DNA from: Chryseobacterium gleum | Lineage (GTDB): Bacteria > Bacteroidota > Bacteroidia > Flavobacteriales_F > PHOS-HE28 | Direction: 5' to 3' | Length of the DNA: 64,000 nt | Assembly: GCA_945872795.1 (NCBI GenBank) | Contig: CAMCAZ010000001.1 | Location: 56,085-120,084, forward strand | Shown here: positions 1-20,119 of the stretch, one piece after another | Layout: each line of letters starts with the position of its first letter | Numbering within the stretch: position 1 is the stretch's first letter | Notes under the pieces: generated by a model | Seen by the model: only the letters and a program-made list of their open reading frames with translations | Told to the model about the DNA's origin: nothing | Database searches by the model: none | Position numbers and translations under genes: made by a program

Positions 1-1001
1 TCGCCGATCTGCACATCCCCATCCGTGGGCTCCACCCGGGCCGATGCCATGGGGAATGGCCGCCCGATGGGGACGACACCTTCCTCTTCGAAGGGTGCGG
101 TGATGGGGTGCTCCAGAATGGCGATGGTGGCCTCCGTGGGACCATAGAGGTTGGTGATCGAACTGTTCGGCGCGGCGAGCGACCAGGCCTTCACATCGGG
201 CCAACGCAGGGCCTCCCCACAGAAGAAGGAGCGCCGGATGGTGGGGAACGCTCCGCCTTTCAGTGCACGCATACGATGCAGGAGCGCGATGACCGATGGC
301 ACCGAGAACCACACGGTGACCCCTTCCTCCTGAACGTACGCGGACAGGCGCAGGGCGTTGTCATCCGCGGGAACGCACAGGCAGGCGCCACTGCCCCAGC
401 ACACGAACAGGTCATGAACGCTCAGGTCGAATCCCAGGCTGAACAACTGTGTGCAGCGGTCCTCCACTTGGATGTCCCAGGTCGCCAGGGCGTGCTCCAG
501 GTAGGCCGAAACGTGCGAGCGACCCACGGGAACACCCTTGGGGCCGCCTGTGCTACCGGAGGTGAACATGACATAGGCCTCCTGGCCAGGCACCGGGCCA
601 CCACGTGCCGGACCCGAACGTTCGTTGAGGGGTAGGTCGAACAGTGATCGCAGGCGTTCATGCTGCTCGGCCGGGGCGACCAGGCCCGATGCCGCAGCCT
701 GTTGCAGGCATTGCTGCCAGCGCTCGGGCGGGTGGTCGGGGTGCAGGGGCACATAGGAACGACCACTGTACAGTATGCCGAGCACGCCGGCATAGCTCGT
801 GACGGAACGTATGCCCAGTAGCCCCACACGCGAAGCCGGGGGAAGCGCAGAATCACACCAGTGGGCAACGGCCAAGGCCTCGGCATGTAGTTGGGCATAG
901 CTCCATGTGCGACCATCCACCCGCAGCGCAGGACGGTCCGGCCAGCGGACAAGGGCCCGTTCAAAGACGGCCCAAGGGTCGAATGGTGCAAAGGTGCTCA
1001 C
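1..1001 (-). CDS. adenylate-forming enzyme (AMP-binding / amino-acid-adenylation-like domain); N-terminal ~333 aa only, 3' end lies outside the window
   Basis: Not in the ORF track because it runs off the window start. Reading the minus strand in the frame with plus-strand codon triplets at 3-5, 6-8 and so on, I get ...YVMFTSGSTGGPKGV... (about 567-525; the TSGSTGxPKG ATP/AMP signature). The same frame gives ...GILYSGRSYVPLHP... and ...ITNLYGPTEATIAIL... (about 159-115; the YGPTE motif). This frame is open from an in-frame stop (tca at 1086-1088) down to base 1. The likely start is GTG at 1001-999, forming a GTGA overlap with the stop of the upstream gene. Confidence 0.7.
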   Translation of the reverse strand, partial: MSTFAPFDPWAVFERALVRWPDRPALRVDGRTWSYAQLHAEALAVAHWCDSALPPASRVGLLGIRSVTSYAGVLGILYSGRSYVPLHPDHPPERWQQCLQQAAASGLVAPAEQHERLRSLFDLPLNERSGPARGGPVPGQEAYVMFTSGSTGGPKGVPVGRSHVSAYLEHALATWDIQVEDRCTQLFSLGFDLSVHDLFVCWGSGACLCVPADDNALRLSAYVQEEGVTVWFSVPSVIALLHRMRALKGGAFPTIRRSFFCGEALRWPDVKAWSLAAPNSSITNLYGPTEATIAILEHPITAPFEEEGVVPIGRPFPMASARVEPTDGDVQIG

Positions 1002-1003
1002 GA

Positions 1004-2179
1004 TCAGAACCGGGGCAGGTGGCCTTCCACACAAAGCAACGCATCGGCGAAGTACTTCTGTGCCCAGTTGGGGAAAGCGAATTTCTCATAGCGGCCCCAA
1101 AGCGGATATGAACCGGTGACCCCGCCCAGTGCTCCGGACGGCCCCACGTCTGAAAGGCGCTGTACAGCCATTAACCACTGCACCATCGCAGAGGTACCTT
1201 GGGAATAACGCTCCTCGCCTGTGATCCGGGCCAGACGCGACCATACGATGGCCAGTTGCGCACAGCCCGTGGTGATGGAGGATTCACTTCCCCGCCAACG
1301 ACCGTCGTACCGACCTGCCGTACGCCCCTCTTTCTGGAAACGGACCAGCAGGGCATCGGCAGCCTTCTTCGCAGCCCACAGATACCGTTCATCCTTCGTG
1401 TATCCGTAAGCCTCCAGCAGGCCGTCCAACGTATAGGCGATCGTATGGGTGATCGGTCGGTCGTTGTGCTTGATCGTATTGTCCGCATTCGCGAACCAGC
1501 CATTGGGCTGCTGGCAGCTGAGCACCCATTCCAGGTTGAGCACGGCGGCGCGGCGATAGCCCAGGTCACCCGTGAGCTCGCTCAAATGGAGCAGAGGGGC
1601 GTCCACATAACTGTCGTAGACCCGTGAGGCGCCAAGGAAATTATGCCTCGCCCAGGATCCGTCCTGTTCCTGCACCGAAACGATCCAATCACCGGCCATC
1701 CGGGCCGAGGCCAGGTGCGCGGGTGCATTCCACTGCGCGTAGATCGCCAACATCCCCCGGATCACCTGGGCCGTGTTGAACACGATAGACGGCCTGTCCT
1801 CTCCCACCCGTCCACCCTGCCAGCCGCCATCGGGACGTTGGATAGAGCACAACCAGTCCGCAGCGCGGCGTGCACGATCGTTGAGTTCGGGCCTGGCCAA
1901 CACCTCGGCGGCCAGAATGAAGGTGGGGATGATATAGCCCGTGGTCTCCGGATAGGACGCGCCATGGCCCTTCACCAGATGAAAACTACCGAACCCGGCA
2001 TCCGGACCGTGGTCCTGACAACGGCACAAGTGGTCGATCACATCAGCGAGCGATCGGCGAACTTCCTGCAATGGACGCGGCTGAAGACCGGTACCATGCG
2101 CCATGACCAAGGTACGGGACGGGGCGGTGGAAAGCGCTACCGCGAAGGAAGAGGCATACTCCAGTGCTGAACGGATCAC
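1004..2179 (-). CDS. alpha/alpha-toroid protein with prenyltransferase / squalene-cyclase-type (QW / PFTB) repeats
   Basis: 391-aa ORF. It has two perfect QW motifs of the form [W][LIV]x3Qx3GxW (WLCSIQRPDGGW and WIVSVQEQDGSW) and a third variant (WVLSCQQPNGWF), spaced about 50 aa apart. There is a PFTB-like DGGWQGG...IVFNTAQVIRGMLAI repeat. I saw no DxDD or DDxxD motif. The GTG start overlaps the wecB stop (GTGA at 2176-2179). Confidence 0.6.
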   Translation of the reverse strand: MIRSALEYASSFAVALSTAPSRTLVMAHGTGLQPRPLQEVRRSLADVIDHLCRCQDHGPDAGFGSFHLVKGHGASYPETTGYIIPTFILAAEVLARPELNDRARRAADWLCSIQRPDGGWQGGRVGEDRPSIVFNTAQVIRGMLAIYAQWNAPAHLASARMAGDWIVSVQEQDGSWARHNFLGASRVYDSYVDAPLLHLSELTGDLGYRRAAVLNLEWVLSCQQPNGWFANADNTIKHNDRPITHTIAYTLDGLLEAYGYTKDERYLWAAKKAADALLVRFQKEGRTAGRYDGRWRGSESSITTGCAQLAIVWSRLARITGEERYSQGTSAMVQWLMAVQRLSDVGPSGALGGVTGSYPLWGRYEKFAFPNWAQKYFADALLCVEGHLPRF

Positions 2180-3330
2180 CGGAAACGAAGGAGTTGTGTG
2201 CAGATGTGCTCAGCGGCACGGCCATCGCCAAAGAGCGGAGGACAAGGGGGAGCGCCATCGCGCAGGAAACGGTCCGCAGCGTCCCTGATCCACTCCGGTT
2301 CAGCATCGGCCAACACGGCCTGTCCACGCTCCACCAGTTCCACCCACTCGGTCTCGGGGCGCAGGATCACACATGGACGTCCCACGAAGTATGCTTCCTT
2401 CTGTACCCCTCCGCTATCCGTCAACACCAGGCGCGCATTGCTCTCCAGGGCGATCATATCGAGGAATCCGGCAGGTGGGATGAGATGCAGCCCCGGGGTC
2501 TGCAACAATGCCTGGCGTACCTCGGGTGACAAAAGGCTGTCCATCATCTTCCGGGTACGCGGGTGCAGGGGCAGCACCACGTCCAGGCCGTGCGCCCGGT
2601 GCAATTCGAGGAGCGCCCTGAAAATGGCGTTCAAGCGCTCGCCGACGTCCGTGTTGGCGTCACGGTGTACGGTGGCCAAGACGTATTCCTTCCCCTCCAG
2701 CCCCAAGTGGGCCAGCAGGGTGGAGCGCTCGGCCGCCCGTGTCGCGAAGTGGAGCGTGTTATCGAACATCACATCACCGCACTGCACCACGTGGGGATGA
2801 TCCATGGTCGGCGGATGGGAAACATCCGTACTGAAGCCTTCCCGGTGTAGGTTGTTCACTGCCGTGTCCGTCGGACAGAACAGCCAGGTGCTGCAGTGAT
2901 CGCAGACGATCCTGTTCAGCTCCTCCGGCATCCGTTTGTTGAAGGACCGGAGCCCAGCCTCGATGTGGGCCACCGGGACCTGCAGCTTGGAGGCCGCAAG
3001 GGCACCGGCCAGTGTGCTATTGGTATCGCCGTACAGCACCACCACATCATGTTCCCTGCGCAGCAGCACCTGCTCGATGCCTTCGATCATCCGTGCCGTG
3101 GTGGCCCCATGTTGGCCGCTACCTGTGTGCAGGTTGATGTCCGCTGCAGGGATGCCCAGCTCGTCGAAGAACACCTGGCTCATGTTGGCATCGTAGTGCT
3201 GGCCGGTGTGCAGCAGGGTCTCCTCGAGCTGCCCCTTGTACGGACCACGCACGGCTCGGCTCAGGGCGGCGGCCTTGATGATCTGCGGACGAGCGCCGAT
3301 GATGGTGAGGAGGCGGAGCGGTCGGTCCAT
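2176..3330 (-). CDS. wecB: UDP-N-acetylglucosamine 2-epimerase (non-hydrolysing)
   Basis: 384 aa; the N-terminus LLTIIGARPQIIKAAAL...HTGQHYD...MSQVFFDELGIP is typical of WecB/MnaA. ATG confirmed at 3330-3328. Confidence 0.9.
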   Translation of the reverse strand: MDRPLRLLTIIGARPQIIKAAALSRAVRGPYKGQLEETLLHTGQHYDANMSQVFFDELGIPAADINLHTGSGQHGATTARMIEGIEQVLLRREHDVVVLYGDTNSTLAGALAASKLQVPVAHIEAGLRSFNKRMPEELNRIVCDHCSTWLFCPTDTAVNNLHREGFSTDVSHPPTMDHPHVVQCGDVMFDNTLHFATRAAERSTLLAHLGLEGKEYVLATVHRDANTDVGERLNAIFRALLELHRAHGLDVVLPLHPRTRKMMDSLLSPEVRQALLQTPGLHLIPPAGFLDMIALESNARLVLTDSGGVQKEAYFVGRPCVILRPETEWVELVERGQAVLADAEPEWIRDAADRFLRDGAPPCPPLFGDGRAAEHICTQLLRFR

Positions 3331-3332
3331 GA

Positions 3333-4064
3333 TCAGTGAAGTATACCGTTATCTGCAAAACTGTAATAACCCTGGTCCGTGATGATCAGGTGGTCATGCA
3401 CTTGGATGTCCAGCAGACGCCCTCCTTCCACCAGCTTTCGGGTCAGGCGGATGTCCTCCTCGCTGGGCCGCAGTTGACCACTGGGGTGATTGTGACAGAG
3501 AACAATGGACGATGCCCGGCGGTCCAGCGCTTCCTTGAAGATGATCTTGGGGTCGGCCACGGTACCGTGCATGCCTCCACGGCTCACGTGGCACCGGTCC
3601 AGCATCCGGTTGCCACGGTCCAGGGCGATGATCCAGAACTCCTCATGGGATAGGTCAGCGAAGAGGTGACGCACCAGATCAAAGGCCGATGCGCTGGACA
3701 CGACCGATGGCCGCTCAGCGGGCTCGGATTCCTTCCTTCGCCGACCAAGCTCCAGGGCCGCCACGATACCGATGGCCTTGGCCTCGCCCATCCCGTTGAA
3801 GCGGGTGAGATCGCCCAAGCTCAGGCGCCCGAGCTTGTGGAGGTCATCCCCTGCCCGCAGGAGAATGTCACGGGAAAGGTCGAGAGCGCTTTGCTTCACA
3901 CTTCCTGAGCGTATCAGGATGGCAAGGAGCTCCGCGTTGGACAAGGCCCCGGCACCCAGGCGCATGAGCTTCTCGCGGGGGCGGTCATCCTCTGACCACT
4001 CCCGCATGCTGCGTTTGGACGATTCCGTCCCGTCATTCGTTCCAGTTTCCAAGGGCCGATCCAT
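3333..4064 (-). CDS. radC: RadC-family JAB-domain protein (UPF0758)
   Basis: 243 aa; helix-hairpin-helix N-terminal part (NAELLAILIRSG) and a JAMM/JAB core (HNHPSG...SEEDIRLTRKL). ATG at 4064-4062. Confidence 0.85.
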   Translation of the reverse strand: MDRPLETGTNDGTESSKRSMREWSEDDRPREKLMRLGAGALSNAELLAILIRSGSVKQSALDLSRDILLRAGDDLHKLGRLSLGDLTRFNGMGEAKAIGIVAALELGRRRKESEPAERPSVVSSASAFDLVRHLFADLSHEEFWIIALDRGNRMLDRCHVSRGGMHGTVADPKIIFKEALDRRASSIVLCHNHPSGQLRPSEEDIRLTRKLVEGGRLLDIQVHDHLIITDQGYYSFADNGILH

Positions 4065-4070
4065 GGGGTG

Positions 4071-4101
4071 CCAAAAAGAACAGGTCCCCGAGAGGACCTG
4101 T
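4071..4101 (-). terminator. rho-independent terminator of rpsT
   Basis: Perfect 8-bp inverted repeat acaggtcc (4079-4086) / ggacctgt (4094-4101) with a 7-nt loop. On the minus strand it is followed by a T-run (TCTTTTTGG, complement of 4071-4079). Confidence 0.7.
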
Positions 4102-4123
4102 CCAAGATAGTCGATCGAACGGC

Positions 4124-4493: not shown

Positions 4494-5642
4494 TTAATAG
4501 GCCTTCTCGTCCTTTCCGAACATGTTGGTCACGGTCTTCACCACGATCTTGAGGTCAAGCCAGAACGACCAGTTCTCCAAGTACCACACGTCCAGTTCCA
4601 CGCGGCGCTCCATCAGTTCAGGGGTCTGGGTCTCGCCCCGCAGGCCGTTCACTTGGGCCCAGCCGGTGATACCGGGCCGGACGAAGTGGCGGACCATGTA
4701 CTTGTCGATGATATCCCGGTACTGCTCGTTGAGGCGAAGTGGGTGCGGACGGGGACCCACGATGCTCATGTGCCCGAACAGCACATTGAAGAACTGCGGC
4801 ATCTCGTCCAGGTTGCTCTTGCGCAGGAAGCGTCCCACGGCAGTGACGCGCGGGTCGTTCTTGGTGGCCTGCTTGGAATCGGCCTCCTTGTTCATGCGCA
4901 TGCTGCGGAACTTCCAGCAGACGAACTGCTCGTTGTCCTTGCCCAAACGGACCTGCTTGAAGAACACCGGGCCGCGGCCGGAAAGTTTGACCAGCAAAGC
5001 CAGGATGGGGAACAGCCAGGTGAAGATGAACAGGATGACACCCAGGGAGAAGGTCACGTCAAAAGCGCGCTTGATGCGACGGCTGGAGGTGCTGTCCAAG
5101 GGCTCCTGACGGATCATGCTGACCGGGACCGCCCCGTGGAACTCGAGGCCGGAGGTCTTGACCACCGGAATGAAGCTGTCGGCACTGGGAATGACCCGGA
5201 AGCGAACCGTGTTGCGCTCACAGAACTCCATCAGCTCGGTGATGTCGCTCCTTCGCGTACCGGGAAGGGCGCAGTACACAATGTCGATGTGGTTCTGGAT
5301 GGCATAGGCCTTGGCTGCCTCCACATCCCCGATTCGGCGTGCGTTCAGCGGACCATCGATGGGGGTGTCGTTGAACACACCGCAGAAACGGTAGCCACGC
5401 ACGGTCTGGTCCTCACAATACTGGAAGATCTCCTCCGCGGCAGGACCATCACCCACGATGATGAGGTCCTTGACCGAGGTCAACGGCTCTAATGTCAATA
5501 CTTTGTTCAATCCGGTCTGCACGTTCTGGAAGGACATTCGTCCCGAGCGAAGCAAGGTAGAAAGTTCCGCGTTGAGTTCCGCACCGACCGCCGCCTTGCT
5601 CGGCATCCCCACTCCGGGTTCTGCGATGATGGTCCTCTCCAT
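4494..5642 (-). CDS. undecaprenyl-phosphate sugar phosphotransferase (bacterial sugar transferase / WbaP-CpsE-like; initiating transferase)
   Basis: C-terminal catalytic domain ...RFLRKSNLDEMPQFFNVLFGHMSIVGPRPHPL...PGITGWAQVNG; one TM segment; N-terminal Rossmann-like part (DLIIVGDGPAAEEI). The track start at 5708 is GTG; an ATG (MERTII) is confirmed at 5642-5640. Confidence 0.8.
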   Translation of the reverse strand: MERTIIAEPGVGMPSKAAVGAELNAELSTLLRSGRMSFQNVQTGLNKVLTLEPLTSVKDLIIVGDGPAAEEIFQYCEDQTVRGYRFCGVFNDTPIDGPLNARRIGDVEAAKAYAIQNHIDIVYCALPGTRRSDITELMEFCERNTVRFRVIPSADSFIPVVKTSGLEFHGAVPVSMIRQEPLDSTSSRRIKRAFDVTFSLGVILFIFTWLFPILALLVKLSGRGPVFFKQVRLGKDNEQFVCWKFRSMRMNKEADSKQATKNDPRVTAVGRFLRKSNLDEMPQFFNVLFGHMSIVGPRPHPLRLNEQYRDIIDKYMVRHFVRPGITGWAQVNGLRGETQTPELMERRVELDVWYLENWSFWLDLKIVVKTVTNMFGKDEKAY

Positions 5643-5888
5643 GGTGAAGGGTACGGTTGGTTTCCAATGACCTCTTTTTCGAGGAGGCTCAAATGTACCC
5701 TCGACCACCCTGAAATGTCAAGCTCGTCGATAAATATTAATGTTCCATCGACATTTTTCCTCCTTGAACCGACCATCGATGAGGTCATGGCGAGGAGGAT
5801 ACATCGCCCTTATCTGTTCATTTTCAGACCGTTAGGCATTCCAACCACCGGTCACCTGCTGATGATCGACGACGATCCGACGAAATGC

Positions 5889-6677
5889 TCACTTCACATC
5901 GGCTTGACGCTTGTCGAACAGCCGGCGGAAAACCTCGGCCGCCAGGAGAACGAGGAACTGCGTGTTCGTTACCAGGTAACGTCTCCAAAGGCGACGAGGC
6001 TCGAGCACGAAACGGTAAAGCCATTCCAAGGAAAGGTCGCGCATCCATCGGGGCGCCCGGGTGTCCACCCCGGCATAGAGCAGGAACGCACCCCCCAAAC
6101 CGAGCATCACCCCGTTCACACGTCCCTTCATGGCCGCCATCCAGCGCTCCTGCTTGGGGCAGCCCAGGGAGACCATGACGATCTGTGCGCCTGCGGCATT
6201 GATCCGTGCGGCCTCTGCATTCATGTCCAAACCGGACAGTGGGCCGAAGGGAGGTGCATGGGAGCCTGCGAAGTGGAGGGTCGGCCACTCGCGTGCAGCC
6301 CGGTCCCTGATCTTCTGCAGGGTATCCTCCGAACCGCCGTAGAGGAACACGCTCAGGCCTTGGGATGCCGCGCGTTCGAGCAGGGCAGGCAGGAGGTCGT
6401 TACCGGCCACACGCTGCTGCTTCACCTTGTGGAACCACTGGAGGACCTTCAGCACGGGCATGCCATCCGCAGTGGCCAGGTCGGCCGCGTTCACCACCGC
6501 TGCGAAGCCAGGATCCCGGCATTCCACGGTCATGTGGGCGTTCACGCAACAGACGTAGCTGGAACGGTGGGCCTGTGCTGCCTGTGCGATCGCTTCCACA
6601 TGTTCCGTGAAGGAACCCACGCTGATGTCCACGGTGAGCACTCTTCGCTTGGGCAACTGGCTGACCGAGCTGCTCAT
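5889..6677 (-). CDS. WecB/TagA/CpsF-family glycosyltransferase (N-acetylmannosaminyltransferase-like, GT26)
   Basis: 262 aa; ...VNAHMTVEC...ADGMPVLKVLQWF...LYGGSEDTLQ...VSLGCPKQERWM... is a typical GT26 pattern. The ATG at 6677 overlaps the epimerase stop (ATGA). Confidence 0.85.
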   Translation of the reverse strand: MSSSVSQLPKRRVLTVDISVGSFTEHVEAIAQAAQAHRSSYVCCVNAHMTVECRDPGFAAVVNAADLATADGMPVLKVLQWFHKVKQQRVAGNDLLPALLERAASQGLSVFLYGGSEDTLQKIRDRAAREWPTLHFAGSHAPPFGPLSGLDMNAEAARINAAGAQIVMVSLGCPKQERWMAAMKGRVNGVMLGLGGAFLLYAGVDTRAPRWMRDLSLEWLYRFVLEPRRLWRRYLVTNTQFLVLLAAEVFRRLFDKRQADVK

Positions 6678-7693
6678 GGGCCGGCCTTCTTGGGGAGACG
6701 GACATCAATGCGCGTCGGTGCCACGATCCGCTCGCTGCCACTGTCGTACCACTTGACCATCGCCTTCACACCGGCCTCGATGGACCAGGGCGCTTCGCCC
6801 AATGCGGCGATGGTGCCTTCCATCGGCGTGATGTAATCGCTGGTCATGCTGCGGAAACGGCCGCTGGTGATGGGGAACGGGATGCCGAGGGCCTTGAGCA
6901 CATCGCCGCCCCGGGCCACCGCACGGATGAGCGTCGTGGGGATGTAGCGCACGGCCCGACCGGTGAGCTCCTTGGAGACCGCCTCCACCCACACCTTCAG
7001 GTCGAACGGACGGTCGCCGACATAAAAGACCTTGCCGTCCACCACGCTGCGGGGAACCTCCAACATGCGTTCGATCTGCCAGACCACATTGCCCACATAG
7101 CCGTAGGAGCGGACCACACGCCCCTTTCCAGGATGAACATACAGGCCCTTGCGCATCACCTTGAACAGCACGTCGCGGTAGCGCAGTGACCAGGGGCCCC
7201 AGATGGTGGTGGGCCGGATGATCGTCCAGCTGCACGGCAGTCCGGCCTCACGCGTGACCATCTCCGTGCGGCGCTTGGATTCGCCGTAGACCGTGAACGG
7301 CTTGAAGTCCAAATCGTGTCTGGGCTGGTATCCCGCTTCACAAACGAACTGGGTGCTGGTGACCACGATGCGCTCCACTCCGGGACTGTTCTTCACCACT
7401 TCCAACAGGATGCGGGTACCCTCGTGGTTCTGTCGGTAGGCGTCCACATCCACCGGTTCGTCGGTATCCGTCCGTGCAGCGAGGTGCACCACGTGCGTGG
7501 GCTTGAATTCATCGAAGACCTTTTGCATTGCCGGTCCGTCCATGATGTCCACCTCTTTCCACCACTTGCGCTGCCCCGGATCCAGCGGAGGGTTCCAATC
7601 CAGATTGATCAGCTCCACGCCTTTGGCAGCCATGTGCTCCATGAAGTTGGTCCCGATGAACCCGGAACCACCAGTGACCAGTACACGCATCAT
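6674..7693 (-). CDS. NAD-dependent epimerase/dehydratase (SDR, extended)
   Basis: MMRVLVTGGSGFIGTNF... GxxGxxG Rossmann motif. The track start at 7699 is TTG; the ATG at 7693 sits 3 nt after the GT stop. Confidence 0.85.
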   Translation of the reverse strand: MMRVLVTGGSGFIGTNFMEHMAAKGVELINLDWNPPLDPGQRKWWKEVDIMDGPAMQKVFDEFKPTHVVHLAARTDTDEPVDVDAYRQNHEGTRILLEVVKNSPGVERIVVTSTQFVCEAGYQPRHDLDFKPFTVYGESKRRTEMVTREAGLPCSWTIIRPTTIWGPWSLRYRDVLFKVMRKGLYVHPGKGRVVRSYGYVGNVVWQIERMLEVPRSVVDGKVFYVGDRPFDLKVWVEAVSKELTGRAVRYIPTTLIRAVARGGDVLKALGIPFPITSGRFRSMTSDYITPMEGTIAALGEAPWSIEAGVKAMVKWYDSGSERIVAPTRIDVRLPKKAGP

Positions 7694-7695
7694 GC

Positions 7696-8823
7696 TCAAC
7701 GCTCTTCAGATATGCCCACGAGCTCGCGCTCCATGGATCGATGGAACGCTTCCAACGTAAAATCCCGCACAAAGATGCGCCTCCCCTCCTCCCCCATCCG
7801 CCGGCGCAAGGAGGCGTCCATGGCCAAGGCCCGGAGCTTGCCGGCCACAGCTTGGGGGTCTCGGATCGGGACCAGGAATCCATTGACGCCATCGGCCACC
7901 ACCGAAGGAATGCCCCTCCACAGGGTGCTGACCACGGGTTTGGCGAACTGCATGGCCTCGACCAACACGAGCCCGAAGCTCTCCGCCTCGAAGTAGGACG
8001 GGAAGCAAAAGATGTCGCAGGCTGCGAAATGCCTGAATTTCTCCAGGTCCTGCTTGACACCCAGGAAGGAGACCCGATCGGCAAGCCCCTGCCGGACCAC
8101 ACGTTCCCTGCATTCCGTCTCGAAGGACGCATCGCCCCATTTACCCATCAGCTCCAGCCGGGCATCGACGCCCTGACCGCATAACAACGCGAAAGCATCC
8201 AACAGGTCACGGACACCTTTGGAAGGAATGAGCACACCGGTGAAGAGGATGACCAGGGGCTCCCCGGGCCGTGCGATCCGTTCCTCCACCCGGCCCCGCA
8301 TATCAGGAATTCCGTTGGGAACCACCACATCGCGCCGGGCACCCAGCACCCGTCCGTCCTCAGGGTTCTGTGGCGCTGTGCGTATCGCCAGTGCCGGACG
8401 CCCATAGGCATAGCGGAACAGCGGTCGCAACGGTGCAGGCAACTGTGCAGCGTAGGATGAAACACCACCGGCATGGAAGTGAAAGACCGTCTTCCTGAAC
8501 AACCAACGGGTGGAGCAGAGCAGGACGATATCGCGCAGCACAGGGACCTTGTTGGGCCCGCTGGGAGGATAGTAGAGCACCGGTGTGTTGTGCCGGAACC
8601 GGGCCCACCAGATGCGCAGGATGGTGGTGAAGAGCACCCAGACCTTGCGCAACGCGAATTTGCCCACGCTCTCCATATCCTCCGAAAAGGCCATGCGCAC
8701 ATGGAACAGGCGCACACGCTCAGACCTCAACTCCAGAAGCACGGCGATCATCACGGCCTGGCCTCCATGGGGCGGCGGCGTTTGACCGACCACCAGAATG
8801 CGATGAGGAGAAGTGATCTGCAC
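7696..8823 (-). CDS. glycosyltransferase family 4 (GT-B, Glycos_transf_1)
   Basis: 375 aa; C-terminal ...EAMQFAKPVVSTLWRGIPSVVADGVNGFLVP... matches the EX7E-type GT4 motif. GTG start. Confidence 0.85.
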   Translation of the reverse strand: MQITSPHRILVVGQTPPPHGGQAVMIAVLLELRSERVRLFHVRMAFSEDMESVGKFALRKVWVLFTTILRIWWARFRHNTPVLYYPPSGPNKVPVLRDIVLLCSTRWLFRKTVFHFHAGGVSSYAAQLPAPLRPLFRYAYGRPALAIRTAPQNPEDGRVLGARRDVVVPNGIPDMRGRVEERIARPGEPLVILFTGVLIPSKGVRDLLDAFALLCGQGVDARLELMGKWGDASFETECRERVVRQGLADRVSFLGVKQDLEKFRHFAACDIFCFPSYFEAESFGLVLVEAMQFAKPVVSTLWRGIPSVVADGVNGFLVPIRDPQAVAGKLRALAMDASLRRRMGEEGRRIFVRDFTLEAFHRSMERELVGISEER

Positions 8824-8991
8824 ACGGCAAAAGTATCCCGGCGATCAGGCGGGATGTGCGATGCCCAGCACACGCATCAACAGTGGAGCGTGCATCGTCT
8901 GCGCTGTGCGGCCGAAGTTCCGTCGACAAGATCGGTGCATTCGTCGTAAAAATGGAACCGTGGCAGCCAAGAGCGAGTTGAACCGCATCCA

Positions 8992-11736
8992 ATGCCATTG
9001 AAAATGAGCAGGAAACTACACGTGGGATTCGCAGTGCTTTTCACCTGGTCCACCATTTCGGCCCTTGCCACCACCTATTACATCTCTCCCACGGGCAGCG
9101 ATGCCAATAGTGGGACCTCACAGGCCCAGGCCTGGCAGACCATCGGTCGCCTGATGCAGAGCATCTATTCGCTGCAGGCCGGTGACGCCATCCGCTTTGA
9201 GCGCGGCGGCACCTACCGGGGCGAGTTCATCATTCCGAGCTCGGGCACCAGCAGCCAGAAGATCCAAGTGGGCGCCTATGGATCGGGACCACTGCCGGTG
9301 ATCAGTGGCAGTGATGCCGTGAGCGGCTGGACCCAGCAGAGCGGAAACATCTGGCGCTCCAACGTGGCGGGCACCGTGAAGTACGTATTCGTGAACGGTG
9401 AGCTGATGACCCTGGCCCGGTTCCCCAACACCGGTTGGTTGCGCAACGACCAAGGCAGTGGCACCCAGATACAGGACAGTGAGCTGACCCAGGCGAACGG
9501 GTATTGGAACGGAGCCACCGCAGTGATCCGCAGTTCGAACTGGAGCTACGACGCCGTCACGGTCTCCAACCATGCCAACGGCAGCATCACCTTCCCCAAC
9601 ATCTACTTCAACCTGTCCAACTACGAATGGGGATACTTCCTCTGCAACAAGCTCAGCGAGCTGGACAGCCCCGGTGAGTGGTTCCACGATGCGGCCAATG
9701 GCCACCTGTACCTCTGGGCACCGAACAATGCCGACCCGAACACGCTGAACGTGGAGGCCGCTGTGCGCGAAAAGGGTGTCACCGTCTTCTGGCAGCGGCA
9801 GCACGTGCAGATCAGCGACCTGGTCTTCCAGCACCAGCGGGTGTGTGGCGTGCGGAACGATGGTGCAGCATACGTGGACATCACCGGATGCACCTTCCGG
9901 GAGCTGTATCAGGGCATCAGCAGCTACGGAAACAACAATCTCTACACGAACAACCGCTTCGAGGACACCTTCGCCACCGGCGCGCACCTGATCGACAACA
10001 ATAGCACGTTCGAGGACAACACCATGGAGCGCATCGCCATGAAAGCAGGCCTGGGCGAGAGCAACTGGGGTTATTTCGGGCTGCGCCTGAACGGTACCGG
10101 CAATGTGATCCGCTCCAATCGACTGGAGGACATCGGGTACATCGGCATCGGTATGGACCAGAACTGCCTGGTGGAACGGAACGTGGTGCGCAACGCCACG
10201 GCCCTGCTGAACGATGGTGGGGGCATAGCCTTTGACAATGCAGATGGCATGATCATCCAGGACAACATCGTCGTGGACATCATCGGCGATCTGGAGAGCT
10301 CCGCACCGGACTTCGAGAACTACGAACTGATCTCGCATGGCATCTATTTCGGGAACACCACCATCCGCAACACCATCGTGCGGCGCAACACTGTGGCCCA
10401 CTGCATGGGAAGCGGCATCCATGTGGACCACACGATGGTCTCCACCGGGAACCAGATCACGGACAATGTGCTCTTCAACAACCAGATCCAGCTGAGCGTT
10501 TCGGACTATTCGAACTACAACGGACCGGGCGCCACACCACCCTACCATGTGCCGTCCTTCAACGGGACCTACACCGGGAACACCCTGTACTGCATGACGC
10601 GCGACCAGTTGTGCATGAAGCAGTACAACGTGCATTCACCGAACGTCGTCGACTTCGGGGTGTTCAACAACAACCGCTACTTCAACCCCTACAACGAGCT
10701 GAGCATCTTCGTGCACAACACGAACTCGGGGACGCAAAAGCGCTACACACTGGAGCAGTGGCGCACTGAACGGACGGAGGACCCCAACTCCACCCGGAGC
10801 CCACTGCGCCTGGAGGCCTTCGAAGTGCTGGACGAACTGAGCGCAAACCTCATCGACAACGGAACGTTCAGTTCGAACGTGGCCGGCTGGGGTGGCTGGC
10901 CCACCCAGGGTCAATTGACACGCGACGCCACCCTTCTCGACAACGGTGCCCTGAAGGTCCTGTTCAACAACAACGCATCGTACCCGGAATTCATCCTGCG
11001 GCACGATGCCATGACCGGCATCCAAAGCGGATCCCACTACCAACTGAGCTTCAGCACACAATCCACCATGCCGGGCACCTTGAAGGTGGAACTGAAAGGC
11101 CAGACCCAGATGTCCGGGCCCAACGTCGTGTACAAGAGGAACGTGCCCTTCAGCAGCGAGCGGCGCGAGGTTTCCATGATCTTCCAGAGCGACCTCACCG
11201 ACCAGGCCGTCTGCCGGTTCACCAACCACTACACCGAAAGCACCTACTGGCTGGACAATGTGGAGCTGAAGCGGGTGACCGTCCTTGCGCTGGACCCGCA
11301 CGACCGCCACATCCTGCTCATCAATGAGGAGGCCTCATCGCAGACCCTGTCGCTGACCGGTTGCTGGCGCGATGTGCATGGTACGATCCATAGCGGAAGC
11401 ATTGACCTTGCTGCGTACGGCTCGGTGGTGCTCACCAAGGAGGATGATGCGACATGCTCCATGACCACCGGCATCAACGATGTTGCGACCTCATCGTGGA
11501 GCGTGTTCCCCAACCCTGCCCAGGCCGGAGCGCACCTGAACCTCGGCCAACTGAACGGTGCATCGGCCATGGTCCGGATGTTTGACCTGAACGGCCGCCA
11601 GGTATTGGAGGAACGTATCCCCGCCGGTATGGATATCCTGCAACTTCCCGCATCCCTCGCCAGCGGCATGTACAACCTGGCCCTGGAGCGGAATGGCGAT
11701 GCAGTGCACAACACCCGTCTGATCGTGACCCAATAG
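8992..11736 (+). CDS. T9SS-secreted right-handed parallel beta-helix protein with a CBM4_9-like domain (candidate polysaccharide lyase/hydrolase)
   Basis: 914 aa; signal peptide; repeated PbH1-like turns (NNRFED..., DNIVVD..., GIYFGNTTIRNTIVRRN). Central NGTFSSNVAGWGGW... looks like a carbohydrate-binding module. The C-terminal ~80 aa (SVFPNPAQAGAHLNL...GMYNLALERNGDAVHNTRLIVTQ) is a type-A T9SS sorting domain. It is convergent to the surrounding polysaccharide operon. Confidence 0.75.
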   Translation: MPLKMSRKLHVGFAVLFTWSTISALATTYYISPTGSDANSGTSQAQAWQTIGRLMQSIYSLQAGDAIRFERGGTYRGEFIIPSSGTSSQKIQVGAYGSGPLPVISGSDAVSGWTQQSGNIWRSNVAGTVKYVFVNGELMTLARFPNTGWLRNDQGSGTQIQDSELTQANGYWNGATAVIRSSNWSYDAVTVSNHANGSITFPNIYFNLSNYEWGYFLCNKLSELDSPGEWFHDAANGHLYLWAPNNADPNTLNVEAAVREKGVTVFWQRQHVQISDLVFQHQRVCGVRNDGAAYVDITGCTFRELYQGISSYGNNNLYTNNRFEDTFATGAHLIDNNSTFEDNTMERIAMKAGLGESNWGYFGLRLNGTGNVIRSNRLEDIGYIGIGMDQNCLVERNVVRNATALLNDGGGIAFDNADGMIIQDNIVVDIIGDLESSAPDFENYELISHGIYFGNTTIRNTIVRRNTVAHCMGSGIHVDHTMVSTGNQITDNVLFNNQIQLSVSDYSNYNGPGATPPYHVPSFNGTYTGNTLYCMTRDQLCMKQYNVHSPNVVDFGVFNNNRYFNPYNELSIFVHNTNSGTQKRYTLEQWRTERTEDPNSTRSPLRLEAFEVLDELSANLIDNGTFSSNVAGWGGWPTQGQLTRDATLLDNGALKVLFNNNASYPEFILRHDAMTGIQSGSHYQLSFSTQSTMPGTLKVELKGQTQMSGPNVVYKRNVPFSSERREVSMIFQSDLTDQAVCRFTNHYTESTYWLDNVELKRVTVLALDPHDRHILLINEEASSQTLSLTGCWRDVHGTIHSGSIDLAAYGSVVLTKEDDATCSMTTGINDVATSSWSVFPNPAQAGAHLNLGQLNGASAMVRMFDLNGRQVLEERIPAGMDILQLPASLASGMYNLALERNGDAVHNTRLIVTQ

Positions 11737-15423: not shown

Positions 15424-16743
15424 TCAAACGGCCCGATGGAACTTCCAGAACGAGATGATCCCTGTGCACATCCATTTCAGATTCGCGCGGGTGCTCTTGA
15501 ACAGCAGGTCCATCAGGAAGATGCTGATCGTGAACGAGCCGATGGTGGCCCATATCGCGCCGACCGACTTGAACGGAGGGATCAGCAAATAGTTCATCCC
15601 GATGTTGACCGCCGCACCCACGACCCCGGTGAGGAGCGAGTACTTGAACAGGCTCTCATTGGTGATGAAGCTGGACTTGCCCACACCCATGTTGGTGAAG
15701 AACAAGCGGATGGCGAACAGGGAAAGCAGGACACCGGACGGACGGAAGGCCTCACCGAAGAGGAGCACCATCAAGGGTTCAGCCAGGAAGTACAGGGGGA
15801 TGGCCGTGACCAGGAACATCAGGAACATCAGGCGGTACTGGTTCAACAGACGGTCCTCATACTGTCCGTTGCCGAGGGCCTTCGCCCGGGTGATGGCGGG
15901 GGCCAGGGACTTCTGCACGATGACCGGCAGGAACCCCAGTGCCTCGATCATTTTCAAGGCATTGGAGTACTGACCCACTTCGGCATTGGCCGCCTCGGCA
16001 CCCAGTCGCGTCCGTAGCATGTCGCCGATCATGACCTGATCGATCTTGGCCTGCACATATAGGGCCATGCCGAAGATGATCAAGGGCCAGGATTGCCGCA
16101 TCAGGTAACCAGCCTCCTTGCGATCATACTTCCAGGAGCGCCAGCTGTGGCCGCCCCGCTCGTAGGCGATCACATAACCGACGGAAAGCGTCAAGGTCTC
16201 CAGCACGTAGACCCAGGCGAACCAGAGCAGTGGTGCCCCGAAATAGACCAGACCGATCTTGAACAAGGCACTGACGACGACCTGCACCATCTGCACCACC
16301 ACCGTTTGCTTGGAGCGGACCTCGGCCATGAAATACCAATCCACCACACCGAAGGGTCGGAGGAGCTCCGCCGCCGCGATGACCACCACGAGGGAGGCGG
16401 TGAGGCCGTCCATGTCCTTGAAAAGACTGGACAAGAGCACAAGTATCACGAGCAGCAAGGACCCCAGGAACTTGATGACGGCCGCGGTTCCCAGCAGGGC
16501 ATCCCTTCGCTCCGGATGTTTCACCAGGTCGCGCACCACGATCTCATCGAGGCCCATGGTGGTGAGGGCGAAAAAGATGCCCACAAAGCCTGTGGCGTAG
16601 TTGAGCTGACCGAACAGGGAAGGCCCGAGGTAGCGCGCCACCAGGATGCCCGTACCCAGAACGACCACCAGACGTACGACCCGCTCGACCAGGAGCCACG
16701 AGGTATTGGCGAAATACCTGCGAAAGCCCTCCGATCGGATCAT
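15424..16743 (-). CDS. wzx: oligosaccharide flippase (MOP superfamily, Wzx-like polysaccharide biosynthesis protein)
   Basis: 439 aa, about 12 TM helices, N-terminal ...LLVERVVRLVVVLGTGILVARYLGP... is typical of Wzx/RfbX. ATG at 16743. Confidence 0.8.
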   Translation of the reverse strand: MIRSEGFRRYFANTSWLLVERVVRLVVVLGTGILVARYLGPSLFGQLNYATGFVGIFFALTTMGLDEIVVRDLVKHPERRDALLGTAAVIKFLGSLLLVILVLLSSLFKDMDGLTASLVVVIAAAELLRPFGVVDWYFMAEVRSKQTVVVQMVQVVVSALFKIGLVYFGAPLLWFAWVYVLETLTLSVGYVIAYERGGHSWRSWKYDRKEAGYLMRQSWPLIIFGMALYVQAKIDQVMIGDMLRTRLGAEAANAEVGQYSNALKMIEALGFLPVIVQKSLAPAITRAKALGNGQYEDRLLNQYRLMFLMFLVTAIPLYFLAEPLMVLLFGEAFRPSGVLLSLFAIRLFFTNMGVGKSSFITNESLFKYSLLTGVVGAAVNIGMNYLLIPPFKSVGAIWATIGSFTISIFLMDLLFKSTRANLKWMCTGIISFWKFHRAV

Positions 16744-16758
16744 GGATGGATCGGTGGA

Positions 16759-19104
16759 CTACTTGGTGTAGTAGCCATAGCCTTCCCCGTAACCCTGGCC
16801 CGGCTTCACGTCATTGAGGAGGAGGTCGACGTTGGCGATCTTCTTATCCTGGTACATCTCGCTGATCAGGCGCAGCGCACTGCGCCGGGTAAAGCCTTGA
16901 CGGACCACATAGAGGGTCACGTCGACGTGTCGCATGATGATCACGTACTCACTGACCAGGCCCATGGGCGATGCATCCACGATGATCTGATCGTACCTGC
17001 CCCTCAACTGTGCGAACAGTTCGGTGATGCGCACGTGCTCCACCAGTTCCAATGGATTGGGAGGGATCGGCCCTGCCATGATCACATCCAGCCCGGCGAC
17101 ATCGGTCTTCTTGATGATCGTATCCAGGGATTCTTCACCGATGAGATAAGTGGAAAGACCAGGTCCTTCCGGCATTTCCAGCACCGAGGCCACGCGCGGT
17201 CGGCGCATGTCCGCATCGATCAACAGGGTACGTTTTCCACTGATGGCCATGACGGTCGCCAGGTTCAATGCACAGAAGGTCTTCCCTTCGCCACTGGATG
17301 ACGAGGTGAACCCGATGATCTGTCGCTGGGTGCTCACGTTCAGGTACTGCAGGTTGATCCTTGCCGTTCGGAAGGACTCGGCCAACATGGACTTCGGCTC
17401 ATCGGGCAGGATGCGCTTCCGCTTGCTCGTGGGGATCAACGCCAGGATCGGCAAAGGGCTCAGTCGCTTAAGCTCATCGGCATCCACGATCCGGTCATTG
17501 AAGAAGTCACGGATCAGGATGAACGCCATGGGGAGCAACAGGCCCAGGAGGAGTGCGCCGCCGAGGACCACCTTCTTGTCCGGAGCCACAGGCCCCAAGC
17601 CTGCAAGTCGCGCCTCATCGATCACCACCTTGTCCACCTGGTCGGAGGCGATGGCGATGCCGGCTTCGGCACGCTTCTCCATCAGGTAATTGTAAAGGCT
17701 CTCGCTCAGTTTGAACTTCCGTTCGATGTTCCCCAGTTTGCGCTCATTCTCGGGCAACTGGTTGAACTCATAGCCGATGCGCCCCAAGCGACGGTTCACC
17801 TCGACCAAACTGATATCGGCTTGCTGAACAAGGCTTTCAGCCGTCTGGGCCAGTGAACCGGAGAGGCTCTTCATCTTCCGCTCCATGGCGATCACCGTCG
17901 GGTTGCTCTTCACCGTGGTCAGGTTCAGGGCAGCGAGATCAGCGGACAGCTTCGTGATCTCGATCACCAAGTTGTTCAGGATGGGGTCGTCGATCCCGGA
18001 GGATGAAGGAGCAGGAACGTTCCGAAGGTCTGAGGAGGAACGGATCTTCTCCAGTACGGACTGGCAATAGCTGCGGCGTCGCACCAGCGTGGATCGCTCG
18101 TCCTCCAAGCGGCTTCGCTCTTGGAACAGTTGGTCCGAGGTTCCCGTTGCGCTCATCATCCCGCCGCTGGTGCCACGGAAACCCTCCATGGAGGTCTCCA
18201 CCAGCTTCAGTGAATCGGATACGGTGCCGATCTGCTCATCGATGAAGTTGATCGTCTTCAGCCCCTTCTTCTGTTGCTTGTACAGTTCACCTTCGATGTA
18301 GGTCTCCATCAACTTATTCAGGAAGGTGCTTTCCTTCAGCACCACCTCGCCCTTGCTGCGAAGCACCACGATGTTGCTCTTGTCGCTGAGCGGCTCGGCC
18401 AGCACCTTGCCCCGGTATTCCGTCACCAGGCCCTCCAAGCTATTGATGTAGAAGAAGTGCTCCCTGCCCGCACCGTATTTCCGGTCCGCGGGGAACTCGA
18501 TCGTGAAGCCCAGATTCTTCGCAACAAAGGGCTCTCCAATGGCCACCGTCTGGTCCACCGAATAATCCTCGATGAACTGATCCATCACCTCCTGCTTCTG
18601 CACATTGTACAGTTGCACGTTGCTTCCCTTGGCCTTCACCCGATACGTGCCGGCGGTCCTGTCCACGGATACATGGATCGGCACCCCGGTGACCTGCAAG
18701 GCAACCGTGTCCAGCTTGACGAAGAAGGGTGGATACTCGAACCGTTCCACCGTAAGGAAGTTGTAGGTCTCGTAGTAGCTGATACCGAGATCCACGCGCT
18801 TCAGTGTCTTGGTGATGTTGTTCCGCGAGGTCAGCACCGAGATCTGGTCCTCGATGTCCGTGTTGCTCTGGAGATAAGAGACGCCCTTGAGGAACTCATC
18901 CTGCCCCCCTCCGAAGGAACTGCGGCTCTTCTCGCTCATCAGCATCACGGCCTGCACTCCATACTGCTTGGGTGTGGTCTTCAAATAGGCCACTGCGACC
19001 ACCAGCGCAAGGGTGGTGGTGAGCAGGAACAACCACCACTTGGCGACGAGCTTGCGAAAGATGACCCGCAGGTCGATGGTGTCGTTGATCGGCGCTGCGC
19101 TCAT
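16759..19104 (-). CDS. wzc: polysaccharide co-polymerase / tyrosine autokinase (Wzc-like, PCP-2a)
   Basis: 781 aa; N-terminal Wzz-like periplasmic domain flanked by TM helices; C-terminal BY-kinase with Walker A (SSSSGEGKTFCALNLA) and DxD (LLIDADMRRP); tyrosine-rich tail GYGEGYGYYTK. Confidence 0.85.
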   Translation of the reverse strand: MSAAPINDTIDLRVIFRKLVAKWWLFLLTTTLALVVAVAYLKTTPKQYGVQAVMLMSEKSRSSFGGGQDEFLKGVSYLQSNTDIEDQISVLTSRNNITKTLKRVDLGISYYETYNFLTVERFEYPPFFVKLDTVALQVTGVPIHVSVDRTAGTYRVKAKGSNVQLYNVQKQEVMDQFIEDYSVDQTVAIGEPFVAKNLGFTIEFPADRKYGAGREHFFYINSLEGLVTEYRGKVLAEPLSDKSNIVVLRSKGEVVLKESTFLNKLMETYIEGELYKQQKKGLKTINFIDEQIGTVSDSLKLVETSMEGFRGTSGGMMSATGTSDQLFQERSRLEDERSTLVRRRSYCQSVLEKIRSSSDLRNVPAPSSSGIDDPILNNLVIEITKLSADLAALNLTTVKSNPTVIAMERKMKSLSGSLAQTAESLVQQADISLVEVNRRLGRIGYEFNQLPENERKLGNIERKFKLSESLYNYLMEKRAEAGIAIASDQVDKVVIDEARLAGLGPVAPDKKVVLGGALLLGLLLPMAFILIRDFFNDRIVDADELKRLSPLPILALIPTSKRKRILPDEPKSMLAESFRTARINLQYLNVSTQRQIIGFTSSSSGEGKTFCALNLATVMAISGKRTLLIDADMRRPRVASVLEMPEGPGLSTYLIGEESLDTIIKKTDVAGLDVIMAGPIPPNPLELVEHVRITELFAQLRGRYDQIIVDASPMGLVSEYVIIMRHVDVTLYVVRQGFTRRSALRLISEMYQDKKIANVDLLLNDVKPGQGYGEGYGYYTK

Positions 19105-20038: not shown

Positions 20039-20047
20039 TCTCTTCCG

Positions 20048-20119
20048 TAGCCCGTAGGGGAATCGAACCCCTGTTTCATCCGTGAAAGGGACGCGTCCTA
20101 ACCCCTAGACGAACGGGCC
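20048..20119 (-). tRNA. tRNA-Glu (anticodon UUC)
   Basis: Reverse complement reads GGCCCGT-TC-GTCT-AGGGGTTA-GGAC-G-CGTCC-CTTTCAC-GGATG-AAAC-AGGGG-TTCGATT-CCCCT-ACGGGCT-A. This is a canonical cloverleaf (7-bp acceptor with G1:U72, 4-bp D stem, 5-bp anticodon stem). The anticodon loop is CTTTCAC, so the anticodon is UUC. The T-loop is TTCGATT. CCA is not encoded. Confidence 0.85.

Follow-up and report, generated by a model that had tools for sequence, protein, structure and literature searches.

The first 4 kb of a 64,000-nt stretch of Bacteroidota DNA (contig CAMCAZ010000001.1, deposited under Chryseobacterium gleum; hereafter the window) contain four closely packed minus-strand genes between positions 1 and 4064, namely radC, wecB, a gene for a 391-aa toroid protein, and an adenylase gene that is cut by the window edge. 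An earlier note on this DNA had described these four genes and the motifs of the truncated adenylase, and translation and profile searches bear this out. Coordinates are those of the window, and unless said otherwise window proteins were profiled against Pfam and NCBIfam (Table 1). Two of the genes have equivalog-level matches: wecB to TIGR00236 (1e-86, 291.4 bits against a cut-off of 210.15; the hydrolysing NeuC model reaches 43.5 bits against 235.9) and radC to NF000642 (4.7e-64, 215.9 bits against 180; Pfam RadC, 2.9e-41). The junctions are tight. Only 2 nt separate radC from wecB, the wecB stop overlaps the toroid start in a GTGA (2179-2176), and the toroid stop (TGA, 1006-1004) is followed by a 2-nt spacer and the adenylase GTG; of two GTGA overlaps claimed earlier, the one at 2179-2176 is present and the one near position 1001 is not. 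The ATG of radC (4064) lies about 9 nt past the T-run of the strong terminator-like hairpin that follows rpsT, which leaves no room for a separate radC promoter. A sigma-70 promoter scan was set aside as not informative for Bacteroidota promoters. With more than 3000 homologues and about 90 invariant positions for the toroid protein, these are not chance open reading frames (ORFs).

An exact look-up of the toroid sequence gave no match, and the DNA beyond the window start was taken from four contigs (L001-L004) that encode P0001, a 99% homologue of the toroid protein, and that, over 4.7-12.2 kb, share 98.6-98.8% DNA identity with the window. On these contigs the toroid gene is followed by genes for the complete adenylase, the carrier, GNAT, AAC(3)-like, VimE-like, and Fem-like proteins (Table 1), and Upp (uracil phosphoribosyltransferase), and the junctions overlap or leave 2 nt throughout. 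The earlier note had named the DNA past the window start as the place to look for a carrier protein and an acyltransferase, and both are found there. The window thus holds the upstream end of a packed ten-gene run (radC, wecB, toroid, adenylase, carrier, GNAT, AAC(3)-like, VimE-like, Fem-like, upp), which is perhaps one unit, maybe fed by read-through from rpsT. The last gene, upp, lies directly 3' of the Fem-like gene, overlapping it in Flavobacteriales, and also follows it in a Bacteroidales locus (L071) and in an unclassified Bacteroidota locus (L085), where it is split into two ORFs.

Table 1. Features of the window and of related loci that carry the same genes (positions in the window unless a contig or locus is named)
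Feature	Position	Strand	Remarks	Basis
Adenylase, N-terminal 333 of 486 aa	1..1001	minus	start GTG 1001-999; C-terminus beyond window start	translation, Pfam, NCBIfam
Toroid protein, 391 aa	1004..2179	minus	single-domain (alpha/alpha)6 'six-hairpin', uncharacterised family	
wecB, non-hydrolysing UDP-GlcNAc 2-epimerase	2176..3330	minus		TIGR00236
radC (UPF0758 + RadC JAB domain)	3333..4064	minus	first gene of packed run	NF000642, Pfam RadC
Putative terminator hairpin, 11-bp stem + T-run	4078..4103	minus	between rpsT and radC	consensus match
WcaJ-like initiating phosphotransferase	5708..4494	minus		Pfam, NCBIfam
WecG/TagA-family ManNAc(A) transferase	6677..5889	minus		Pfam, NCBIfam
NAD-dependent epimerase/dehydratase	7699..6674	minus		Pfam, NCBIfam
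GT4 glycosyltransferase	8823..7696	minus		Pfam, NCBIfam
Beta-helix protein, 914 aa, type IX secretion system (T9SS) C-terminal sorting domain	8992-11736	plus	between GT4 and Wzy_C genes	Por_Secre_tail
ORFs of 331 and 461 aa	13167-15553	minus	between Wzy_C and Wzc	no Pfam/NCBIfam match
tRNA-Glu	20047-20119			tRNA and Rfam scans
LVIVD-repeat protein, second T9SS cargo candidate	28858-30225	plus	between purine/uridine phosphorylase-family gene and gatB	Por_Secre_tail
ORF of 2874 aa, then ORFs of 310 and 632 aa	48517-57141	plus		
Full adenylase, 486 aa	L001-L004		downstream of toroid	TIGR01733
Carrier protein, 85 aa	L001-L004		after adenylase	PP-binding, Pfam 1.3e-5
Small GNAT, 159 aa	L001-L004		after carrier	
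AAC(3)-like protein, 288 aa	L001-L004		after GNAT	Antibiotic_NAT
VimE-like DUF7033 protein, 434 aa	L001-L004		after AAC(3)-like gene	NCBIfam deacetylase_VimE, 5.9e-40
Fem-like protein, 306 aa	L001-L004		after VimE-like gene	Acetyltransf_6
upp	L003 10466-11116		after Fem-like gene	
upp	L071 ~17100		after Fem-like gene	
upp, two ORFs	L085 16840-17486		after Fem-like gene	
Site of undetectable adenylase	L059 ~11170-11350			
Second DUF7033 gene	L062, L068, L073, L075, L077, L081, L086; ~8440-9970		directly upstream of toroid	
Permease and T9SS plug genes	L062, L066, L068, L073, L075, L076, L081-L084, L086; ~16400-19300		downstream of cassette	plug, NF052315

Relatives of the toroid protein were found in 490 of 185,579 species genomes, and gene order was compared in the best 80 of these 490 loci by tblastn with twelve proteins of the run. 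All 80 come from metagenome-assembled genomes of Flavobacteriales, Bacteroidales, or unclassified Bacteroidota. A common order (toroid, adenylase, carrier, GNAT, AAC(3)-like, VimE-like, Acetyltransf_6) is kept in both orders, down to 42-49% toroid identity. Among the 52 loci with enough downstream DNA, which form the informative set, 37 hold all seven genes, six are without adenylase, carrier, and GNAT, eight are without these three and the AAC(3)-like gene, and one is without the adenylase alone; none of the 52 lacks the toroid, VimE-like, or Fem-like gene. Reduced forms occupy at least three distinct positions on the toroid tree, and the Bacteroidales outgroup has the full set, which indicates that the adenylase module was lost repeatedly. 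In the one locus without the adenylase alone (L059, Flavobacteriales), carrier, GNAT, and AAC(3)-like genes are kept and the adenylase is not detectable, which could reflect recent loss of the gene or its decay to a pseudogene. The conserved heart of the run is hence a seven-gene cassette, from the toroid to the Fem-like gene, with a core trio of toroid, VimE-like, and Fem-like genes and a losable adenylase-carrier-GNAT module. The expected co-occurrence of adenylase and toroid is seen in 37 of the 52 informative loci across two orders. By contrast, the module of four genes in the earlier note does not correspond to the evolutionary unit, since radC and wecB precede the toroid gene in Flavobacteriales only and are not beside the cassette in Bacteroidales loci; radC is probably a syntenic neighbour and not a pathway component. 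Bacteroidales cassettes are flanked on one side by dnaX and an M16 peptidase gene, and on the other by an FtsX/MacB-like permease gene, a T9SS plug gene, and nqrA. The plug gene (NF052315, 1e-126) lies on the other strand downstream of the cassette in 11 Bacteroidales loci, with the FtsX-like permease gene in between. In many Bacteroidales loci the place that wecB has in Flavobacteriales, immediately before the toroid gene, is taken by another DUF7033 (VimE-like) gene, and the encoded proteins share 24-32% identity with the Flavobacteriales VimE-like protein.

Judged by its profiles and motifs, the adenylase is, as had been proposed, of the amino-acid type (nonribosomal peptide synthetase/DltA-like) and not a fatty-acyl-CoA ligase. 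The truncated protein matches Pfam AMP-binding (3e-49) and, ahead of every acyl-CoA ligase model, the NCBIfam amino acid adenylation domain AA-adenyl-dom (TIGR01733, 3.6e-60); the full-length protein of L003 reaches 7e-91 and 305 bits with the latter, just under the cut-off of 317.4. It also matches TIGR03098 (ligase_PEP_1, the exosortase A system-associated acyl-CoA ligase model) at 5e-44. The part in the window carries FTSGSTGGPKG, GILYSGRSYVPL, FDLS, and NLYGPTE, and the complete protein has core motifs A3, A4 (FDLS), A5, A7, A8, and A10 (NGKVDK), as well as YRTGD, GRIDEQVKIAGHRVEPGEV, and equivalents of Asp235 (alpha-amino-binding) and Lys517 (A10). Of 60 aligned sequences, 53 have exactly the pocket code DLHSFCLIAK even though overall identity drops to 35-40%, which suggests that a single substrate was retained throughout; the positions of the code follow what we take to be the GrsA numbering, and the code is a lead on the substrate rather than a test of it. 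The FDLSV and FFCGE stretches presumably resemble those of DltA. In a PDB comparison LgrA ranked first, also with a shortened query, and the closest solved single-domain relatives are 8K4R (an adenylase-carrier complex), IdnL7 (6AKD; Gly, L-Ala, L-Ser), FscH, and AlmE (Gly), which points to a small amino acid as the substrate. In the carrier, Ser42 (LLDSLG), the phosphopantetheine-attachment serine, is kept in 95% or more of 58 sequences.

Such a pair could act in the manner of DltA/DltC or AlmE/AlmF, that is, by placing D-Ala or Gly on a finished envelope polymer or on lipid A, with no part played by the toroid, VimE-like, and Fem-like genes. The adenylase does match the NCBIfam DltA models (7e-63 and 2e-60), AlmE is among its closer solved relatives, the best NCBIfam matches of the carrier are DltC models, and adenylase, carrier, and GNAT are lost on their own as a separable unit. 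However, the DltA scores (213 and 205 bits) are far under the cut-offs (476 and 560), the carrier reaches 22.5 bits against a cut-off of 68, and no DltB/MBOAT, DltD, or AlmG-type transferase is present among the called genes of L001-L004, L085, and L086. Moreover, wherever the module occurs, it is sandwiched between toroid and AAC(3)-like/VimE-like genes through junctions that overlap, and we regard a Dlt- or Alm-type role as quite improbable. Teichoic acid D-alanylation by DltA/DltC and glycine addition to Vibrio cholerae lipid A by AlmE/AlmF/AlmG likewise employ a stand-alone adenylase and a small carrier in an envelope-glycan context, but the likely transferases here are soluble proteins of GNAT or AAC(3) fold, and the likely acceptor is a cytoplasmic sugar amine.

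The toroid protein is more difficult to classify. The earlier note had likened its repeats to those of class II terpene cyclases and prenyltransferase beta-subunits, and had thought it perhaps a binding or scaffold component in a module that could add, among other options, an isoprenoid-derived substituent. It had counted two perfect QW motifs; three QW-type repeats are present (spacings of 56 and 53 residues), of which one, at residues 105-120 (RAADWLCSIQRPDGGW), fits the strict consensus and two, at 165-176 and 218-228, fit it more loosely. Searches with the prenyltransferase and cyclase profiles gave matches that are weak, short, and no better than those to GH88: Pfam Prenyltrans (PF00432) matches residues 90-233 only (1.9e-7, 31.2 bits against 26.5), SQHop_cyclase_C reaches 4e-7 (29.8 bits), and GH88 matches residues 244-340 only (6.9e-7, 29.0 bits against 26.6), with similarly weak Pfam matches of short stretches to GH127, GH76, and GH47. 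The NCBIfam models TIGR01787 (32 bits against 322.7) and TIGR01507 (22 against 431) match residues 100-185 only, and the best PDB sequence matches, squalene-hopene cyclases at 4.7e-7, cover the repeat only. Sequence profiles, then, cannot place this protein. Depositors' names for the family conflict in the same way: terpene cyclase/mutase, prenyltransferase repeat, GH127, YyaL, and YesR are all in use, and no curated functional name was found in any library searched.

Structure comparison is more informative. In a ranking against solved structures the predicted toroid fold is closest to a GH88 unsaturated glucuronyl hydrolase (33.4), followed by YPO2471 (31.5), a second GH88 enzyme (31.3), cellobiose 2-epimerases (30.8 and 30.6), an AGE-type isomerase (29.6), and YteR/GH105 (29.3), with the first terpene cyclases at 26.4 and 26.1; a class II terpene cyclase is thus not the closest fold, and a six-hairpin similarity to GH88/GH105 is evident. 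To these sugar enzymes the toroid protein has 10-16% sequence identity and marginal Pfam matches, and it is apparently cytoplasmic, with a biosynthetic and not a catabolic role. With class II terpene cyclases and prenyltransferase beta-subunits it shares the (alpha/alpha)6 fold and the QW-like helix-capping repeat, but the two-domain cyclase architecture measures about 630 aa against a single 391-aa domain here. As the earlier note had stated, a regular-expression search finds no DxDD or DDxxD in the 391 residues. The profile matches named above span just 50-150 residues of a repeat common to all (alpha/alpha)6 toroids, no isoprenoid gene is present in any neighbourhood examined, and no prenyltransferase alpha-subunit-like gene occurs in any neighbourhood listed. 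The terpene or prenyl reading is therefore largely refuted on motif, size, fold ranking, and context, and we consider it very improbable.

What the toroid family does handle is suggested by its fusions. A profile search of 1.84 billion representatives gave 3535 members (866 clusters at E<=1e-30 and 50% identity), many of them fused to other domains. In 20 scanned fusion proteins the partner was a GT4 glycosyltransferase in six (one also with LicD), a sugar-type Formyl_trans_N domain in five (P0426, P0386, P0447, P0452, and P0459), GT2 in two, and an AAC(3)-like domain (P0409), a methyltransferase, and DUF2341 with a 3-keto-disaccharide hydrolase in one each; four contained nothing recognisable. 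The identified partners are in the main cytoplasmic glycan-building and amino-sugar N-acylating enzymes, which speaks against a terpene role and for a sugar-handling six-hairpin domain that forms a new biosynthetic family. The formyltransferase and AAC(3) fusions suggest that the family acts beside amino-sugar N-acylation well beyond this operon. Many of the roughly 90 invariant residues are polar (E78, R124, D189, D233, H238, H245, D252, R290, E299, R363, E365, K375, and D379), as expected of an enzyme; H67 is invariant as well.

The two remaining members of the core trio bring to mind the Vim steps of Porphyromonas gingivalis. The VimE-like protein matches NF053580 (UDP-2,3-diacetamido-2,3-dideoxy-alpha-D-glucuronate deacetylase VimE) at 137 bits, Bacteroidales copies reach 115 and 154 bits, and D173, D175, H276, and H309 are kept in 95% or more of 65 sequences. 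The Fem-like protein matches Pfam Acetyltransf_6 (1.5e-10). Its predicted model is a double GNAT with a pLDDT (predicted local distance difference test) of 94, and the best structural matches are aminoacyl-tRNA-dependent transferases, with the streptothricin-family Orf11/Sbb17 (PDB 9WQX, 16% sequence identity) at the top; PDB sequence searches with the VimE-like and Fem-like proteins gave no match at all. Fem-type enzymes add Gly to an amino-sugar intermediate in the streptothricin-type pathway (PMC12945691), albeit as part of an actinomycete secondary-metabolite cluster, whereas the present operon belongs to the core genome of Bacteroidota. In P. gingivalis, VimE and VimA exchange the 2-N-acetyl group of a uronic amino sugar for Ser or Gly; VimA, which matches the FemAB-type family, decides between Ser and Gly at N-2 of the linking sugar after deacetylation by VimE (PMC7468200), and the link between VimA and femAB was pointed out by Veith et al. 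The Wbp/Vim pathway of P. gingivalis and Tannerella forsythia pairs the VimE deacetylase with VimA, as the cassette pairs a VimE homologue with a Fem-type double GNAT; in both cases the hosts are Bacteroidota with T9SS cargo, and the predicted chemistry, N-acetyl to N-aminoacyl, is the same (PMC7468200). The cassette differs in its reversed gene order, in the absence of vimF or any wbp gene from the operon, and in its additional toroid, adenylase and carrier, small GNAT, and AAC(3)-like enzyme. The latter two resemble, weakly, AAC(6') (the GNAT) and AAC(3). Aminoglycoside acetyltransferases of the AAC(6') and AAC(3) types acylate amino groups of amino sugars, and GNAT and AAC(3)-type enzymes normally take a pantetheine thioester in the form of CoA.

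Starting from the gene content and order, their conservation, the folds, and the motifs, we favour, on balance and with some reserve, the reading that the cassette re-tailors the N-substituents of an amino sugar in the cytoplasm, swapping acetyl for small amino acids on a sugar that is perhaps nucleotide- or undecaprenyl-linked. The VimE-like deacetylase (DUF7033, CE4-like) would remove an N-acetyl group, and the Fem-fold double GNAT, going by its fold and the VimA and Orf11 precedents, would transfer the amino acid of an aminoacyl-tRNA to the amine so exposed. The adenylase would load the 85-aa carrier with a small alpha-amino acid that it has activated, probably Gly, Ala, or Ser; from there the GNAT, the AAC(3)-like enzyme, or both would move the carrier-bound residue, or acetyl, onto a second amine, either another amine of a sugar or the alpha-amine of the first residue. 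The toroid protein, as modelled, would bind the same sugar, and may epimerise or hydrate it or pass it to a transferase. The product probably enters a conserved surface glycan, here likely made by the adjacent WcaJ/WecG/GT4/Wzy/Wza-Wzc genes; wecB is the probable source of UDP-ManNAc for that block's WecG-family transferase, and possibly for the cassette pathway too. The order of the steps and the acceptor are guesses. Of what the earlier note had offered, aminoacyl decoration of a glycan remains the best reading.

Several points weigh against this proposal. The enzyme activities are predicted, all support is computational, and the hosts are uncultured. The VimE-like protein, at 137 bits, is far under the equivalog cut-off of 440 and, on this score, is a paralogue and not VimE itself. 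The Fem-like protein matches no NCBIfam model, pepcterm_femAB (TIGR03019) included, even across 34 members, and its likeness to VimA draws on Acetyltransf_6, the predicted fold, and the neighbourhood. WbpA/B/E/D-type genes are absent from the ORFs in the first 44 kb of the window and from the flanks of related loci. The sugar role of the toroid protein is deduced from its modelled fold and its associations. A tRNA-dependent Fem-like enzyme would, further, leave the carrier-bound amino acid with no evident acceptor. Lastly, Bacteroidales cassettes lie among housekeeping genes with no glycosyltransferase beside them, and the product might not be a polymer component.

This last context (dnaX, nqr, upp) is also compatible with a pathway to a soluble small molecule, either an amino-sugar conjugate built by the logic of mycothiol or bacillithiol, or an aminoglycoside- or streptothricin-like metabolite. 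In mycothiol synthesis MshB, MshC, and MshD perform deacetylase, amino-acid ligation, and GNAT steps, and the deacetylase, amino-acid ligation, and GNAT capping of the cassette run parallel to these; the top structural match of the Fem-like protein is a streptothricin-family enzyme, and the two acyltransferases of the cassette resemble AAC(3) and AAC(6'). However, in two orders the cassette is inherited vertically and keeps its syntenic place in the core genome, which is atypical of secondary-metabolite clusters, the toroid family is fused mostly to glycosyltransferases, and the closest functional homologue, VimE, acts in lipopolysaccharide-type glycan synthesis. Exporter and resistance genes of the kind common in antibiotic clusters were not identified, though the FtsX/MacB-like permease gene follows the cassette in Bacteroidales. 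We consider a soluble product improbable.

In the window itself, the cassette adjoins a glycan-assembly block. The GT4, epimerase, WecG-type, WcaJ-type, and rpsT genes recur with 58-89% protein identity in 40-56 Flavobacteriales loci, and a Wzy_C gene is visible in the 14 loci whose flank reached far enough. For the four enzyme genes from GT4 to WcaJ-type the figures are 58-85% identity in 40-52 of the 80 related loci. The neighbouring block, the polysaccharide locus of the earlier note, is therefore part of the clade backbone (65-85% protein identity) and not a variable antigen locus. The two ORFs between Wzy_C and Wzc have no family match, and one of them could, by its position, be a flippase. 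The T9SS-sorted beta-helix protein is more divergent: 45 related Flavobacteriales loci encode it at the same place with 44-72% identity, or 97% in the case of the near-identical L005. The tRNA and Rfam scans of the window gave the tRNA-Glu and nothing else, and the 2874-aa ORF and the two that follow it stand further along the plus strand.

A more specific form of amino-sugar re-tailoring is that the cassette makes an amine-bearing linking sugar to which the PorU sortase attaches T9SS cargo, as the counterpart of the P. gingivalis Vim steps. The VimE homologue and the Fem-type transferase constitute the enzyme pair of the Vim half (PMC7468200). Linking sugars are not the same in all genera, and how Prevotella intermedia makes its N-alanyl sugar is unsolved (PMC11969387). 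All 80 best loci of the 490 matches are from Bacteroidota. T9SS and its cargo are at hand, with Por_Secre_tail proteins encoded in the window, one of them inside the conserved glycan block, and the plug gene near the cassette in 11 Bacteroidales loci; T9SS cargo may be anchored to the glycan that carries the cassette's product. The exosortase loci of Proteobacteria pair a FemAB-like protein with a deacetylase, and NCBIfam has an exosortase A-associated acyl-CoA ligase model. On the other hand, the adjacency of plug and cargo genes may reflect clade synteny and is given less weight as functional evidence because both flanks are clade-wide synteny blocks. The VimE score below its equivalog cut-off and the lack of Wbp genes among the window ORFs to 44 kb also count against it, and the GNAT and AAC(3)-like enzymes could cap the very amine that a sortase would need. 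We consider a linking-sugar function possible yet rather unlikely. The fuller version, equally tentative, is that the cassette is the missing route to the T9SS linking sugar in large uncultured Flavobacteriales and Bacteroidales groups, in which the Vim-like and tRNA-dependent Fem-like enzymes would install a nucleophilic amino acid, the adenylase-carrier module would add a second residue, and the toroid protein would be a new biosynthetic six-hairpin enzyme for amino sugars bound to a nucleotide or a lipid.

No description of the cassette or of the role of the toroid family was found in the searchable literature, and the individual parts are of known kinds: a deacetylase/Fem transferase pair as in Vim, a stand-alone adenylase with its carrier as in DltA/C and AlmE/F, and a six-hairpin sugar enzyme. 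The nearest known combination is the ligase-FemAB-deacetylase set of PEP-CTERM/exosortase A loci, which likewise places an AMP-forming ligase, a FemAB-like protein, and a polysaccharide deacetylase beside a protein-sorting transpeptidase system, and which presumably also includes an acyl carrier protein. Those loci belong to Proteobacteria and are biochemically uncharacterised, while the cassette is without an exosortase and its Fem-like protein without a TIGR03019 match. The cassette proteins score below the equivalog cut-offs of VimE, DltA, and squalene cyclase and should not be filed under any of these names.

N-aminoacyl amino sugars occur in many O-antigens, and in Bacteroidota they tie secreted proteins to the cell surface via sortase-like enzymes. 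How amino acids are delivered to such sugars is not established even for P. gingivalis VimA; this operon sets a tRNA-type transferase and carrier-type amino-acid activation beside a VimE homologue, which makes the question of delivery directly testable. It would also provide a first functional context, amino-sugar glycan biosynthesis, for a large and misannotated six-hairpin family. If the linking-sugar route were true, PorU and exosortase anchoring, two unrelated systems, would share one sugar-aminoacylating toolkit, in which the ligase of the exosortase loci would parallel the adenylase-carrier module.

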